DNA of 64,000 nucleotides. Source: Botryllus schlosseri (Eukaryota). Both the position numbers and the translations under genes were made by a program. Location of the stretch: assembly GCA_051294905.1 (NCBI GenBank), contig CM119371.1, positions 30,320,001 through 30,384,000 of the forward strand, read 5' to 3'. Within the stretch, counting starts at the first letter, position 1; every line of letters begins with the position of its first letter. The notes beneath the pieces are model-generated. The model searched no databases and was not told where the DNA came from. It saw nothing but the letters and a program-made list of their open reading frames with translations. Below are positions 4,028-55,100 of this stretch, in pieces.

Positions 4028-7000
4028 AGTGACACATGTGTCTCGTCTTCAGTTGAGAAATATTCACAGAAGGTTGCGTTGGTCTCGCAGTCACATTCTT
4101 CTGAGAAGTAGAATTGGCACTCCGGTGTACCATTGCATCCGTTGACATCTGATAAAAGCACGTATTCGGGTTAGTCAACGCAAAATGAACTGAAGTAGGC
4201 AACCGGAATGGAAGCACGAATCCAAAAGTCCAAATTAGAATCCATAGGAGATCGTCGACTACATCCTGAATAATTTGAACCGAATGGATTCGTTGTTTGA
4301 TGACATGTTCTATTTTATACTGAAAAACGGACGTCAAGAAGACAATGTGTCATATAGTCAAACTATACAAATCCCAACTTCATTAGCCCATGTCGCCGAT
4401 ATAGTCACGGTCGCTTATTGGCCACCGTATTTGAACAGGTGCATATGTTGACCCTGTCCTGTTTTTATCTTGGCAAAAACCTGCAGTTGCATAAACGTAC
4501 ATTTCTGTTTGGTATGGGGACAGGAGTAATTCTTTCCCTTGCGTTGAGGCGGCGGCAATATGTCAGTCAGATTTGAAAGCAGAAATTGTCCTCCTGAAAT
4601 ATGGAATTGTATTTCACGGAATTACACTAATGGTATTGATGACCACAGTCACGATATCGAATTAACTTATGTTTGAGCTTTGGACAGGAGTTTAACCATT
4701 GAAATCGAAAACTAGATATTATATGGCAGATATCAGCTATCAATACGAATGGTTGGCGTTTTCGTGGATGAAATCGATGATGATATGGAACATAGTGGTT
4801 AAATTGAACTTTACATACGCATAAACAGGACCGTAACTGCCGCATCCCAAACCCCTAATTGGGGGGGGTCGAGATCGAAGGGGATCCAAAATTATTTACT
4901 GAACTTACATAAATTACAGAGAATTTTTTAAATTTATGCAATTTTTACCAAATATTTTTTCGCTACGCGGGATTTAAGATTTTCAAATATCCTGATACCC
5001 TTCCCCAAGAAAAACTATGCATGGTCTATGGAAATGGGCATTTCGGCGTAGGCCATTACCGCGCCACGACGCGCGACCTATGAAGTTTTAGACCACGTAA
5101 CATGCGTCTCAGAGAAGTGTGCCAGAACGATCAGCAGCAAGAAAACCTTGGCTAAAAGAACTGCCCTTATGCTGACCGAAAGCTTCGATATATATGCATT
5201 ATGCACACACGTTTAATTATCCATAGGCGCCTAAATGACTGGCGCCGAGTGTTATTGTCGTAGCAATCTGAACCCAACAAGACAAATGCCATCCAGCAGA
5301 GAAAGATTATTTGCCAGTGAAGAAATATCAATCTGAAATCGTGTGCGTATTTTCGTTTAGTAAGTTTGGGCGATTTCGATTTCTGTTGACATAGAACAGT
5401 GCTCTTCAACCTTTTTCGACGTGGTACACCCTTTCAACGTTTGCTCAAAACTCGTACACCCCTGTTCATTAGGGGTCTTCAAAAATGACTTTTTTTCTCA
5501 AATCGTACTGGCTACTTGATAAAATTGTTAGGTTACCTAATTTAAGCCTACACACCAAATTTGGTTCAATTCCAACCAGTAGCCGCCTTGCTACGGGAGA
5601 AGAAAGTTTCTTTTTATTATATAAAAATGAATAACGAAAAATTTGAAATTTTTCTGTTCACCCCATGAAAGTATTAGGTTGTCTATATAAACGATGTTCT
5701 TCAAATTTTGTTCAATTTCGACCAGTAGAAGTGGAGTTATTGCCGTCAAAAAATTTTGATTTGAATAAAATAGTATTTGGTCACAGAGTCTATTCGAAGC
5801 CAGTTAGGCCCCCCGCCACGCAAATTGGAATTTATTTCGTGTCAGAGCACAAACAGCATGACATTACGAACGATAATCAACCTAAATGTAACAGTATTGG
5901 GGAGAGAGTAGGTAAAACTACTGCTGCAGAAGCGGTAATTCAGATCAGCGATGTTAGCAGGTGCACCAGCCAATGCGTACTGCCTGCCCCACACCACATA
6001 CAGTCGATAGTAGCACATGGGCTGCAAGAGTTGTCAGTAACCTCAGATCGTATGCCGCTATACACAGTCTATTGCAGTGCTCTTCAACCTTTTTCGGAGT
6101 GGTACACCCTTTTAACGTTTGCTCAAAACTCGTACACCCCTGTTCATTAGGGGTCTTCAAAAATGACTTTTTTTCTTAAATCGTACTGGCTACTTGATAA
6201 AATTGTTAGGTTACCTAATTTAAGCCTACACACCAAATTTGGTGCGATTCCAACCAGTAGCCGCATTGCTACGGGGAAAATAAATAAAGAAAAATTTGAA
6301 AATATGGTAAGCCTAGTGTACGTTATGTGAGACCGCTTTTCCCGCCTAGACGCGCGAAGCGCGAATAATTTCAGTAATTCAAGAATGTAATCGGGCAATA
6401 TGATCGGGAATTACATATATATTGCTATCAATTTCGATCCTCTCTCTGCTCACGTAATCAGATTCACCGGTAGAGCTGAGCGAAGTCTGTTTTAAAATTG
6501 TAGGACATCCCAATAATAATTAGACATCTTCGGGCGTATACCCGTTGGCAGGAACGAAACAGCACTTCGTCAGCCCCGCCCCCCCACAAAAACTTGGGTT
6601 TTGGGTTCTCATAGGGTGATAAACCCACCCCTCATCACAGTGTTCGCTTTTGCCGAGAAATTTGCTGCACTGTTTAGTGTGCCAGCTCGAAGCGCGAAAA
6701 TTTTCGATAATTCATTATACAATCGGCCAATAAGATTGCATTGCATATATATTGCTATCAATATCTTGTCCTCTCTGCTCATGTTATCAGATTTACCGGA
6801 AACTGTAGGGCCCATAAATAATAATTAAACATTTTCGGGTGGGCGGACCCGTTGGTATGACTTCGTTACATTATTTTATTTCGTGACCTCCTGTCTGCTA
6901 TATCAAAAATATAGAATTGCTCTAACGTACTAAACTAAAAGACGCACACGATTTCAAATTGGTATTTCTTCACTGGGATATATTTTTTTCTTGCTGGATG

Positions 7001-52100: not shown

Positions 52101-55100
52101 AGGTCTACAGCAGGGGTTCTCAACCCGCGGCCCGCAGACGTCTATTTTGCGGTCCGCGACATCTTTCATTATAAACGCAATTGCTACTGACACGATGTTA
52201 CATTAATTTAGCTACTTAGCTCACTTATCGCACCGTCTATGTCTCGTTTAATTACTCATTCTTTAATGTATTCTGGTTTCTTGATATATGCTCGAGTGTA
52301 GATTGTTATTGTTTTGAATCGGTATTCGGCTGGACTCTAGTTCAAGAGAATTCCGTTGTGTAGTACACTCTTAAAGGGTGTTTCACTCAACAAGAACAAG
52401 GAACGGGAAATTAAACGGCGGGAACTGGGTTTGTAACTCCGTTTGGAACAATCAATTTGCTTTCTCAGATATAAATGGAAAACCGATGCTACATATTTGT
52501 CGAATAACAGTTTTCGTAACGAAGCGTAGAAGCTTAAAATTATACCACGACACTCTCTTCTGAAGTTATACGTATCGCCTGATGTTAGAAAAAACATTGC
52601 TAGCTAGGTGTCAAGCCCACCAATCTTTATTTCGGGGCATTGTTAAAATTGTCGACTATATTACAGACGCATGGTTTAAAATTGCTTGGAATATCGTTAA
52701 ACCCATGAAATTTGCCAAAGAATGTGTGATGTCAATATAAAACGAATATTCGCTGCTTCCGATACTTAACAGCAAGGACAACATCACCTGACAAATTTTG
52801 AAGTTACAGTTTTCTGTTTCAACCGTGACCAGAAGAGTAACAGCAATTTCAGTCGATCTTTCATCGCATGTTCTGAAATACGTTGACGCGTGGACTACTT
52901 TAGCCTAGAGCATCGGACGAATCCACTGACTCGACAGACATTACAGGGCGAATTCATTATCTGGGGGCTTTCTATTAGAGTGGAAATGCTGGCAGGGCAA
53001 ACGCGGGTAGGGACCAGCGAAAAACATCAACTTTAAAACGCTGAATTCTATCTGTATTCGTGCAGGGCTCCGCCCATTGAAGGAAAGGAGTAGGGTTGAT
53101 TGGTTTATTCAAAAATGACCCAAACGCCAGACTTCTTCTCATATCACTGAGAGCTCAAAGTGATAATGGCCTCTGTAGCGAAAAAGTTATCGGAATTTTA
53201 TACTTGCTCCCTCACGCATTGAAACAGAGACTTCGGTTCTCTGGTGGAAGGGTTTGAAGGTGCATATACTGACTTGACAACTAATGCAATGCACGCTCAA
53301 TGACGGGACATGCTTGCGCCGCTGAATGATAATATTCGCAGAAAAAAAAACTGGAATCTGGCGAACTCTGTCCGTTAATGCTTTAGAATGCATAAAAATG
53401 TACTAAACGCCCGTATACGACTGGTAAGTAGGCTATACTAGCCTAAATTTAATAATATCCCAGTATATACATGGAAATGATGATCTGCGGCCCGCAGCGT
53501 CTTTCGCTGTTAAAATGCGGCCCGTTATACGAGGGAAGTTGAGAACCCCTGGTCTACAGTGTATAAGCCTATTAGTTAGGTGTGGTGTTATGATATGCTT
53601 GATTGATCATGCGATGGGTTTCCGGATTGTTTTGATGACAGACAAGCATGTGGTCTGGTGGAATACACTTCGAGTCCGACTTGTAAAAGTATCTGTCTAA
53701 GTAGACAGCTAGAAGCTTAGTGATAATACTACATGGTGGCAGCGGTGGGATTCGAACCCACGCCATCGAAATGACTGGTGCCTAAAACCAGGACACCGTC
53801 AAGAAGCCAACGGTTCATCTGAACCTACCGGAGAGAATCCCGCGAGACGACCCTCGAGAATTAGAAATCCGCCACAACGATTTATTGAGCAATATTGATC
53901 ACACACAGGTTTCAAGATCAGGGGCAGAATAATCCCCTAACCTGTTGTACACCTTGGGAGTAGTCTACCTCCCTGGTGACTCTGTCTGTTAAGTGCAAAT
54001 GCCCTGCTCTTGCTAACCTTGCAGGGGTAGTGTCACCTTGTATATATTGTTATCGCTGCTGTATTGTGACTTGTATATAATGTAAGTAGTGTTGATGTCT
54101 CTTCCCCTAAAAAAGGGAGATGTGGTGTTATGATATGCTTGATTGATCATGCGATGGGTTTCCGGATTGTTTTGATGACAGACAAGCATGTGGTCTGGTG
54201 GAATACACTTCGAGTCCGACTTGTAAAAGTATCTGTCTAAGTAGACAGCTAGAAGCTTAGTGATAATACTACATTAGGGTTACCATATTCTAGGATCCGG
54301 CAGGGAGGACACTTTTTACAAATCACAAAAGTTAGATTACCGGACTAGAAAACTGCTGATTATAAAATTTTTACGGGAAATTCTCTTTGTGTTGACTAAA
54401 AAAAGGTCGTTTTCCTATCCTACTCCCGAAATACCCGCGTTATTTAAAACGTTTTTAGTTCAGCCTGTTAATTGGCTGTCAAATCTATAAAGAAGGGCGA
54501 ATTCCCAAAATGGAGGACATTTAATCGTCATTGGAGGACGCTTTCGATTCCTAGAGGATGGTGATCCTACTACCCGTGATACCGAAACTTCAAATATAGT
54601 GTCTCAAGTCGATGACCAACCTAGAAAAGCAGCCTCTCTCGTCTCCCAGGTTGTCACAGAACGCTACTCCGTCACACAGCGAAGCTCCAGAAACCATTCT
54701 TGTTTGATTATTTCGAAGACATCTGAAATTAACGTAAAGGGCGTTGCGAGAATCATATCATCAGTGGATACGTGATCAATATGACGACTTCAGTGACATC
54801 TGTCTACGATATCTTAAATTCAACTCCTCATACCAGAAGTCTAAGCAACCGGTACCCGACCCCTAAATTACGTCACGTTATCGAAATATGGGATCATCCT
54901 GTATATAAATGACTAGATCTTAAATGGACAGTATCGAAGTTTAATTTTTCTCGAGTAATTTTGACTATATACTTCTATTTAATGGGTTGTCATTTAGGCA
55001 AAACTAGACCCAAAGTCCTTACTTTTTCACTTACTTGGAACTATATCTACTTGTACAATGGTAGAAATTATGAACATTACTTCCACTTCTATTGGAGTAC

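Follow-up and report, generated by a model that had tools for sequence, protein, structure and literature searches.

A short LTR element of Botryllus schlosseri with an extended primer-tRNA complement, its Ty3/Gypsy parent and its sister copies

The window analysed here, a stretch of 64,000 nucleotides of the Botryllus schlosseri genome (assembly GCA_051294905.1, contig CM119371.1, positions 30,320,001 to 30,384,000 of the forward strand), contains a 693-bp LTR element in which a 58-nt complement of tRNA-Leu(UAG) stands between the 5′ LTR and the tail of a Ty3/Gypsy pol gene. Very probably, this arrangement arose when plus-strand strong-stop DNA ran on into the primer tRNA and was then transferred with the guidance of a microhomology.

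The element and its parent family

The structure of the element was read from the assembled sequence, and all coordinates are positions within the window; the features are as follows.

53576..53580, + strand: left copy of the target-site duplication (TSD), TTAGG; the same five bases are found at 54274-54278
53581..53733, + strand: 5′ LTR, 153 bp, TG...CA ends; equal to the 3′ LTR and 99.3% identical to LTRs of 4.6-kb family members
53734..53745, + strand: core primer-binding site (PBS) TGGTGGCAGCGG, tRNA positions 65-76; the sole part in common with canonical family members
53734..53791, + strand: 58-nt complement of mature tRNA-Leu(UAG), positions 76 to 27 including CCA, 58/58
53785..53791, + strand: microhomology AAACCAG, tRNA positions 27-33 and parent pol tail; the parent matches start at 53785, and a three-line alignment shows the overlap
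53792..53898, + strand: remnant of the parent pol (integrase C-terminal tail), last 35 codons and stop, without a start codon of its own
53899..54108, + strand: parent 3′ untranslated region, colinear with the parent, 99.6%
54109..54120, + strand: polypurine tract (PPT) AAAAAAGGGAGA, adjoining the 3′ LTR
54121..54273, + strand: 3′ LTR, identical to the 5′ LTR
54274..54278, + strand: right copy of the TSD, TTAGG, matching the left copy

The LTRs, identical at 153/153 bases, enclose an internal part of 387 bp, and the 5-bp TSD and the PPT, which the first-pass annotation had reported together with the identical 153-bp LTRs, are all present. The identity of the two LTRs suggests that the insertion may be polymorphic. 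Direct LTRs, a TSD, a PBS (TGG..., starting at 53734 directly after the 5′ LTR) and a PPT make up the structure of an LTR retrotransposon, and the TSD with two complete LTRs is the mark of integration. The sequences flanking the element are high-copy repeats.

The parent copy is 4617 bp long and has a single open frame of 490+321+537 codons (a 1348-codon gag-pol). Pfam searches found the domains RVT_1 (6.7e-26), RT_RNaseH_2 (1.4e-23), Integrase_H2C2 (4.3e-15) and rve (1.2e-10), and their order in pol, with RVT_1 and RT_RNaseH_2 preceding Integrase_H2C2 and rve, is that of Ty3/Gypsy elements (Metaviridae). The 489 bases of the mini element from 53785 to its end correspond to parent positions 4129-4617 at 99.6%, and the short frame at 53791-53898, whose translation is as previously noted, is the in-frame C-terminus of the parent gag-pol with one residue different; the proposed Gypsy pol tail is thus, by comparison with the parent, the true end of a Ty3/Gypsy pol, and a Pfam search with the 35-residue tail of the mini element returned no families. 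The mini element is evidently, from these alignments, a deletion derivative of the 4.6-kb Ty3/Gypsy element.

Canonical copies of the family read LTR / TGGTGGCAGCGG / ATAACTTCGAAC..., with a tRNA match of 12 nt, as against 58 nt in the mini element. The 12-nt match was found at 20 of the 31 LTR-PBS sites of the family, none of these 20 having a longer contiguous match, which answers the question, raised in the first-pass annotation, of whether the parent already carries the long PBS: its match is 12 nt, not 58. The parent leader also contains the motif TTCGAAC, in register with tRNA positions 53-59 and five bases past the 12-nt PBS.

Compared with tRNA-Leu(UAG) loci read from the same genome, which served as the gene reference, the segment 53734-53791 is the exact reverse complement (58/58) of the last 55 nt of the gene plus CCA; both the 58-nt copy starting from CCA and its proposed end at position 27, adjoining G26, were borne out. 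At the first base past the match, the element implies C, and the host gene has G26. AAACCAG, the 7 nt with which the tRNA match closes, also occurs in the parent pol tail, so that the junction corresponds to parent coordinates 4129-4135 and, because of this 7-nt microhomology, the breakpoint can be placed only within tRNA positions 27-33. ARAGORN found no tRNA genes in the window, and an Rfam search gave nothing above threshold and a sub-threshold match to the tRNA clan on the minus strand, both of which fit a partial tRNA. A tRNA gene or tRNA retropseudogene was rejected, since a complete cloverleaf is absent by these same searches.

We infer the following order of events. The mini element would be a defective cDNA from a single round of reverse transcription, inserted by integrase. 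Starting from the polypurine tract, plus-strand strong-stop DNA would have been made first along the LTR and then along the tRNA-Leu(UAG) primer, which was still joined to the minus strand; instead of ending at the PBS, its synthesis would have proceeded across the T, variable and anticodon arms. The 3′ end, ...AAACCAG, would next have annealed to its 7-nt complement within the pol tail as present on the minus strand and been extended, with the loss of the sequence between the PBS and parent coordinate ~4129. Contiguous tRNA sequence past the PBS and an insert at the deletion junction, both present here, are the features of a deferred second-strand-transfer product.

Sister copies and the state of the template

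The searches, made by pattern and BLAST matches, scored the best candidates and were not a whole-genome census, so the copy counts are lower bounds; flanks were viewed as pieces of 133-172 bases, and most family-B copies are known only around the junction. A 16-nt pattern made of the complement of CCA and the acceptor/T stem has at least 38 genomic occurrences, and the reversed control pattern has none. LTR ends followed by an extended complement of tRNA-Leu, CCA included, were found at no fewer than 38 sites, with 37 distinct junctions and at least seven LTR-end types. The extension is present at 10 of the 31 LTR-PBS sites of the mini element's own family, and the corresponding fraction in a further family is 19/21.

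The ten extended copies of the mini element's family differ in the length of the tRNA part (35-59 nt) and in their junctions. Eight mapped parent junctions are all different (4129, 2855, 4016, 3883, 1686, 140, 107 and an inverted 523-340), and a ninth copy, L039, has 528 nt of unmatched sequence before it continues at parent position 4052. Microhomology at five aligned junctions amounts to 7 nt, 6 nt (one mismatch), 3 nt, 7 nt (one mismatch) and 14 nt (two mismatches); at a sixth, in L040, the BLAST overlap is 1 nt. PBS base 7 is the tRNA's base, C, in all ten read-through copies of the family, and in the 20 canonical sites it is C in eight, A in nine, T in two and another base in one. Two copies carry a tRNA-type PBS and, downstream, a genome-type PBS as well. 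One of the sister copies, L022, is a second complete mini element, with the TSD GGAAG. The over-run event, to judge by these copies, recurs independently in the genome and is not a one-off.

The particular element in the window is single-copy by the matches at hand: among the best 40 of 72 candidates, one match spans the junction, and it is the window itself, which is also the only one among the matches listed to cover the full 693 bp. Being small and without coding function, and having short LTRs together with a PBS and a PPT, the element resembles a TRIM in size and structure, and copies amplified in trans with the same internal structure, which define a TRIM family, were not found among these candidates. 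The suggestion of a TRIM family was therefore not upheld; by the first-pass annotation's own standard, a single copy means a one-off deletion. Nor was the suggested antisense Pol III box B supported: box A lies within tRNA positions 1-26, and because the copy lacks these positions, box B has lost its partner.

The template of the tRNA segments carried CCA, and the genes have no encoded CCA and differ in their 3′ flanks. In addition, position 34 is G in 7 of the 12 sister copies that reach this base, and the gene-encoded A is found in none of the 12; the 29 gene-type sites comprise 19 AAG, 10 TAG and no GAG, position 34 being always A or T. Inosine at position 34 gives G in cDNA, as described in the available part of PMC8062790, and since G at this position marks inosine and is absent from the gene-type sites, the template points to a mature tRNA; CCA, together with G34 across the copy set, thus indicates that the sister copies were evidently templated by mature, edited tRNA. 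The window's UAG copy has no editable base 34, so for this copy CCA alone supports a mature template. Some extended family copies come from tRNA-Leu(IAG) and others from UAG. Two family-A-like copies, L050 and L036, have an acceptor variant known only from an AAG gene, yet T at position 34, and no tRNA-Leu gene among those read fits this combination; base 34 is the last matched base in L036, and L050 is an old, diverged copy.

End points of the tRNA segments and other explanations

None of the 37 copies extends past position 26, and the end points are clustered at 26-29 (8/37), 38-39 (7/37) and 40-43 (9/37); the seven at 38-39 fall just before G37. Eight copies have a tRNA part of at least 56 nt, and in none of them is it longer than 59 nt; given the mean stop rate at the earlier positions, the probability of this is ~1e-8. 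Thirteen copies pass the anticodon loop intact, and the read-through of G37 is clean in 12 of the 13 that pass it. The modification state of G26, G37 and A58 in Botryllus is taken here from other eukaryotes (PMC8062790 and PMC8599865, in their available parts). According to PMC8062790, tRNA sequencing shows I34 and m2,2G26 to be complete almost without exception and m1G37 and m1A58 to be partial, the finding on m2,2G26 coming from four eukaryotes other than Botryllus. With 0/37 past position 26, the copy set is consistent with a halt at m2,2G26, and on this analysis the m2,2G26 block may well have caused the end point of the over-run. The exact halt at G26 is drawn from the copy set, because the window copy is blurred and its over-run may end anywhere from position 33 to 27. 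Of the scenario originally proposed for the window, a read-through by reverse transcriptase, a halt at G26 and a jump, the read-through and the jump are the best explanation of the element, and the exact halt at G26 is obscured by the 27-33 blur.

Three other origins of the tRNA segments were weighed against an over-run stopped by modified bases. The over-run could be real, but with tRNA fragments as the primers; its end points would then be the 5′ ends of these fragments, with run-off followed by template switch. The cleavage sites that give rise to tRNA halves lie in the anticodon loop, the clusters at 38-39 (7/37) and 40-43 (9/37) are near them, and a run-off with a microhomology jump would yield identical junctions; this explanation is nevertheless unlikely, as 8 of the 37 copies end at 26-29, where no common fragment class starts to our knowledge, and 13 copies cross the anticodon loop intact. 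The overall pattern is instead that of tRNA sequencing, with unedited A in 0/12, a partial stop before 37 and nothing past 26 (compare the available part of PMC8062790).

It is very improbable that an ancestor of the family already had a PBS consisting of a long tRNA complement and gave rise to the mini element by ordinary internal deletion. The TTCGAAC of the parent leader, in register with tRNA positions 53-59, speaks for it to the extent that some tRNA-derived sequence past the PBS must be old; however, none of the 20 canonical sites has more than 12 contiguous matching bases, the tRNA part of the ten extended copies is anywhere from 35 to 59 nt long and their junctions vary, and a single ancestor cannot account for copies some of which were made from tRNA-Leu(IAG) and some from UAG. 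Recombination at the DNA level with a tRNA-Leu gene, or an artefact of assembly, is still harder to credit: high-copy repeat flanks can confuse assemblers and nothing more specific favours it, whereas CCA is present in the element and absent from the genes, the 5′ part of the tRNA and the gene flanks are missing from the element, G34 occurs in sister copies against 0 GAG among the 29 gene-type sites, and the element is bounded by perfect LTRs and a TSD. The over-run of strong-stop DNA into the primer is the reading we retain as very probable.

Relation to known systems and significance

As far as the available text of PMC12657518 (2025) goes, the over-run mechanism has already been published for HIV-1, and a single element of this kind is an ordinary product of a known reverse-transcription error. 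That paper describes 44 proviruses whose deletion junction carries 7-54 nt of tRNA-Lys3, and, in HIV-1, m1A58 and m5Um54 are plus-strand stops (PMC8599865, available part). Like the copies found here, the deferred second-strand-transfer proviruses have an intact 5′ LTR, a PBS, contiguous tRNA sequence and a deletion junction, the insert varies in length (7-54 nt in HIV-1; here 4-47 nt beyond the 12-nt PBS) and mismatches at position 58 are few (PMC12657518). In contrast to HIV-1, the elements described here are Ty3/Gypsy in an animal germline genome, the primer is tRNA-Leu rather than tRNA-Lys3, and the extended copies are very frequent relative to canonical ones (10/31 and 19/21 LTR-PBS sites). 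The present copies document junction microhomology, an inosine signature and a limit at position 26 that is absolute; the word microhomology does not occur in the available part of PMC12657518.

The TRIMp3 groups Cassandra, Helenus and Ajax have a small-RNA-like sequence inside the LTRs and a Pol III promoter and are multi-copy, according to the accessible portion of PMC10886601. TRIMs, TRIMp3 included, are like the present element in being shorter than 1 kb, with short LTRs, PBS, PPT and a 5-bp TSD, and in having no coding capacity and a tRNA-related sequence (PMC10886601); here, however, the tRNA piece comes after the LTR and ahead of the internal region, is antisense and begins with the CCA complement, and the element is single-copy. 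A TRIMp3 or Helenus-type TRIM was rejected as a classification, the tRNA piece being outside the LTRs, antisense and without positions 1-26. The primer over-extension sequence of lentiviruses and spumaviruses (PMC13191261, in its available part) and the leader of the canonical parent both have tRNA-complementary bases past the PBS, TTCGAAC differing in that five non-matching bases set it off from the PBS. By this analogy, TTCGAAC could let over-extended plus-strand strong-stop DNA still pair.

The literature searched, mostly outside subscription journals, contained no integrated LTR-retrotransposon copies with a primer-tRNA over-run or an inosine signature. A study of defective DNA of an avian retrovirus from 1985 reportedly found primer-tRNA sequence in aberrant cDNA, and studies of Ty1 plus-strand strong-stop DNA in the 1990s are said to have observed synthesis running on into the primer tRNA; these reports are said to have concerned cloned replication intermediates, whereas the copies described here are integrated in the germline.

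A joint reading of these observations, in which the over-run is routine, a main source of deletions and an archive of tRNA state, and TTCGAAC is an adaptation to it, can be offered only tentatively. If it is true, the tRNA-Leu-primed Gypsy elements over-run their primer either because A58 carries no methyl group, or does so in part of the tRNAs only, or because the methylation does not hinder their reverse transcriptase. Over-run would then be a main origin of deletion derivatives, with 10/31 and 19/21 LTR-PBS sites in the two families, and the TTCGAAC motif of the parent leader would have evolved to rescue strong-stop DNA that had been extended too far. The germline would then hold an archive of the state of the tRNA, with inosine 34 always present, G37 partially modified and the G26 block complete, and also of the identity of the isodecoder that served as primer. 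Apart from this tentative reading, the copy set is of more weight than the single element. It predicts that the A58 block of this species' tRNA-Leu is weak or absent. It shows a one-step route from an autonomous Gypsy element to TRIM-like mini elements, with two complete examples, neither of them amplified. Dozens of independent germline insertions record how far a polymerase read into its modified primer, and thereby give evidence, without experiments, of the tRNA positions at which a natural reverse transcriptase halts in vivo, the copies also showing, event by event, which isodecoder primed and that position 34 was edited.

The mini element and its parent

One complete LTR element lies in the window:

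53581-54273, complete LTR element (mini element), 693 bp, with two LTRs, a target duplication and a purine tract

Its LTRs are 153 bp each, identical to one another, with TG...CA ends; the 5-bp duplication TTAGG flanks it on both sides and the purine tract AAAAAAGGGAGA stands immediately 5' of the 3' LTR, which confirms what the first-pass annotation had observed. Directly 3' of the 5' LTR, positions 53734-53791 form an exact reverse complement (58/58) of the host tRNA-Leu(UAG) gene's final 55 nt with CCA added, and so cover the tRNA from position 76 to position 27. At the following base the element implies C and the host gene has G26, in agreement with the end claimed for the match; the frame 53791-53898 also translates as claimed. 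ARAGORN found no tRNA genes in the window, and Rfam gave only a sub-threshold tRNA-clan match on the minus strand. Both flanks match repeats of high copy number (1287 and 1398 first-look candidates), so the insertion is in repeat-rich DNA. The sequences at 53250-53580 and 54274-54600 are two different high-copy repeats with the mini element in between, and most copies of the right-hand repeat begin 1-6 bases from the insertion point, which reads TTAGGG.

In the 495-Mb assembly searched, about thirty loci match bases 205-693 of the mini element only, i.e., from 53785 onward; these loci represent the 3' termini of a ~4.6-kb element. Its copy on contig 3 (4617 bp, read in three separate pieces) contains a single open frame of 490+321+537 codons, in which Pfam places RVT_1, RT_RNaseH_2, Integrase_H2C2 and rve in that order, a Ty3/Gypsy arrangement; the end of the frame is the tail of the mini element, differing by one residue. 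The parent does not carry the 58-nt match that would have refuted the first-pass proposal, since in canonical copies the LTR is followed by TGGTGGCAGCGG and then ATAACTTCGAAC..., with a tRNA match of 12 nt. In these copies (L041-L048 and others, e.g., G000:C7:4132191-4132225, where G000:C denotes contigs of this genome), the leader consists of the 12-nt PBS, five non-matching bases and TTCGAAC, exactly in register with T-loop positions 53-59 of the tRNA. This motif resembles the lentivirus primer over-extension sequence described in PMC13191261, and could rescue over-extended strong-stop DNA. Two family members come closest to the mini element (99.6%); one of them, G000:C7:4132047-4135400, is only ~3.35 kb long and has the canonical 12-nt PBS, so elements of this family also lose internal sequence in the absence of tRNA over-run.

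The parent matches start at 53785, not 53792. In a three-line alignment, AAACCAG occurs both in the tRNA complement (positions 27-33) and in the pol tail of the parent. The change from tRNA to element sequence may therefore fall anywhere within these 7 bases, so position 27 marks an outer limit for the tRNA copy and not its measured end.

A TRIM family, as suggested in the first-pass annotation, was not borne out: among the best 40 of 72 candidates, which were scored, only the window's own copy (1/40) spans the junction. On this count the mini element is single copy and not such a family. Nor does it resemble Helenus, Ajax and Cassandra, in which small-RNA sequence lies inside the LTRs, as described in PMC10886601, whereas the tRNA copy of the mini element stands directly after the 5' LTR. 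The mini element belongs to an already known kind of defective retroelement genome.

Other extended tRNA copies in the genome

A 16-nt complement (CCA, acceptor and T-stem start) occurs at 38 genomic sites, and its reversed control at none. Reading every one of these sites yielded 37 distinct junctions, as two neighbouring sites are duplicates; the tRNA copies stand behind at least seven different LTR ends, all finishing in CA. For family A, to which the mini element belongs, matches to LTR end and PBS number 31 (20 canonical, two of which fall inside extended copies, 10 extended and 1 other). In family B, with 135-bp LTRs, 19 of the 21 LTR-PBS sites are extended. One family-B copy is a Gypsy deletion derivative with a 411-codon frame containing Integrase_H2C2 and rve (L090 1363-3028; G000:C8 about 23293xxx); its LTR of 135 bp reads TGTAG...CTACA, its PPT is GAGAAGGGAGA, and the ATG of the frame lies inside the tRNA copy, in the variable-arm complement.

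In extended family-A copies the tRNA is joined to differing places of the parent.

Continuation of the tRNA copy in extended family-A copies (positions in the 4617-bp parent copy)
Direct junctions: 4129, 2855, 4016, 3883, 1686, 140, 107
Inverted segment, one copy: 523-340
L039: 528 nt unmatched, then 4052
L036, L050: downstream sequence without parent match

Overlap with the parent at five junctions is 7 nt, 6 nt (1 mismatch), 3 nt, 7 nt (1 mismatch) and 14 nt (2 mismatches); at a sixth it is 1 nt (BLAST). A second complete family-A mini element of about 840 bp, L022 (G000:C12 about 25778403-25779236, minus strand), has its own 5-bp TSD, GGAAG, and a 43-nt tRNA copy, followed by AATGACT three times at the junction, which is template slippage, and by the parent's final 600 bases. 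At L102 (G000:C12:10613875-10614046), tRNA-Leu copies of 46 and 42 nt lie head to head, each of them behind the same LTR end, and this pair looks like a snap-back (self-primed) product; at L079, a 912-nt palindrome directly follows the tRNA copy.

Template and end points of the tRNA copies

Host tRNA-Leu gene sites with D-arm context include at least 19 of AAG type and at least 10 of TAG type, with no GAG or CAG among 29; the genes have no CCA directly 3'. Twelve copies reach position 34, and they carry G (7) or T (5), never the gene-encoded A. The gene-encoded base of inosine 34 is A, and cDNA shows G there at about 100%, as reported in PMC8062790. The presence of CCA, and of G34 where GAG genes were not found, thus identifies the tRNA segments as DNA reverse-transcribed from tRNA that had been processed and edited. 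The isodecoder that primed each event is recorded as well, and five of the seven copies with G34 have an acceptor variant found in only one of the genes read, of AAG type. L050 and L036 combine this variant with T at position 34, which fits no gene read; base 34 is the last matched base in L036, L050 is old and diverged, and the acceptor base might be due to a CpG transition. At least 12 tRNA-Leu genes, AAG and TAG mixed and on both strands, lie within about 110 kb (G000:C4:13522375-13631218), and this cluster includes L074, a 5'-truncated tRNA-Leu pseudogene without CCA.

The tRNA copies measure 16 to 59 nt, CCA counted, and only five end before 39 nt; of the 37 end points, seven fall at positions 38-39, nine at 40-43 and three at 32. 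Eight copies extend to 56 nt or more, and every one of them stops by 59 nt; given the mean stop rate at the positions before (29 stops in 1127 position-exposures), the probability of this is about 1e-8. The set includes 56-nt copies of tRNA-Leu(IAG). The first-pass annotation had proposed a halt at G26 in the mini element; none of the 37 copies passes position 26, and this set makes an exact halt there plausible, but the mini element's own end may fall anywhere within the shared AAACCAG. Among the 37 junctions no copy ends at 17-19 nt, where a stop at m1A58 would fall; mismatches occur in 1 of 36 copies passing position 58 and 1 of 13 passing position 37. Experiments reported in PMC8599865 demonstrated that m1A58 and m5Um54 act as plus-strand stops. 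According to tRNA sequencing in four eukaryotes described in PMC8062790, modification is nearly always complete at I34 and m2,2G26 but varies for m1G37 and m1A58; AMV, a retroviral reverse transcriptase, is blocked by m1G. The pattern of end points and of position 34 mirrors these data, and by analogy host tRNA-Leu would carry such marks.

Proposed mechanism and significance

In these copies, the LTR end is followed by the CCA complement and by the tRNA read 3' to 5', as plus-strand DNA running into the attached primer gives. PBS position 7 has the tRNA's base in 10/10 extended family-A copies; canonical sites have 8 C, 9 A, 2 T and 1 other. In L035 and L038 the order is LTR, tRNA copy, repeated LTR end, genome-type PBS and rest of the element, so that the PBS versions of both strands are kept in one molecule. 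Both loci are near-full-length, and the element's own PBS variant has A at base 7; L035 (G000:C9 about 8693338-8693430) has a 47-nt tRNA copy and then the last 14 nt of the LTR repeated, and L038 (G000:C9 about 13377843-13377968) a 35-nt copy and the last 47 nt.

Plus-strand DNA would copy the minus strand and then continue into the attached tRNA primer; the over-extended 3' end would be unable to pair at the PBS, and pairing at microhomology elsewhere on the minus strand would produce a deletion, duplication or inversion. The pairing partner of the mini element lies 489 bases from the element end, so gag and nearly all of pol would have been lost in one step. Primer over-run followed by a jump, as first proposed, is well supported for the mini element. 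Older retroviral and Ty1 work has the same theme of plus-strand over-run into the primer tRNA. The proposed pathway is the same as the deferred second-strand transfer of HIV-1, for which PMC12657518 describes 44 proviral sequences whose junctions hold 7-54 nt of tRNA-Lys3.

The first-pass suggestion of an antisense Pol III box B is not supported: on the minus strand the T-arm complement does provide a box-B-like motif, but the copy lacks tRNA positions 1-26, within which box A lies. Putative targeting of the mini element by 3' tRNA fragments is possible.

A literature search did not find such a set of over-run copies described for integrated LTR retrotransposons. This genome-wide set is more interesting than the mini element itself, since it is frequent, involves several families, has a limit at position 26 and bears an inosine signature.
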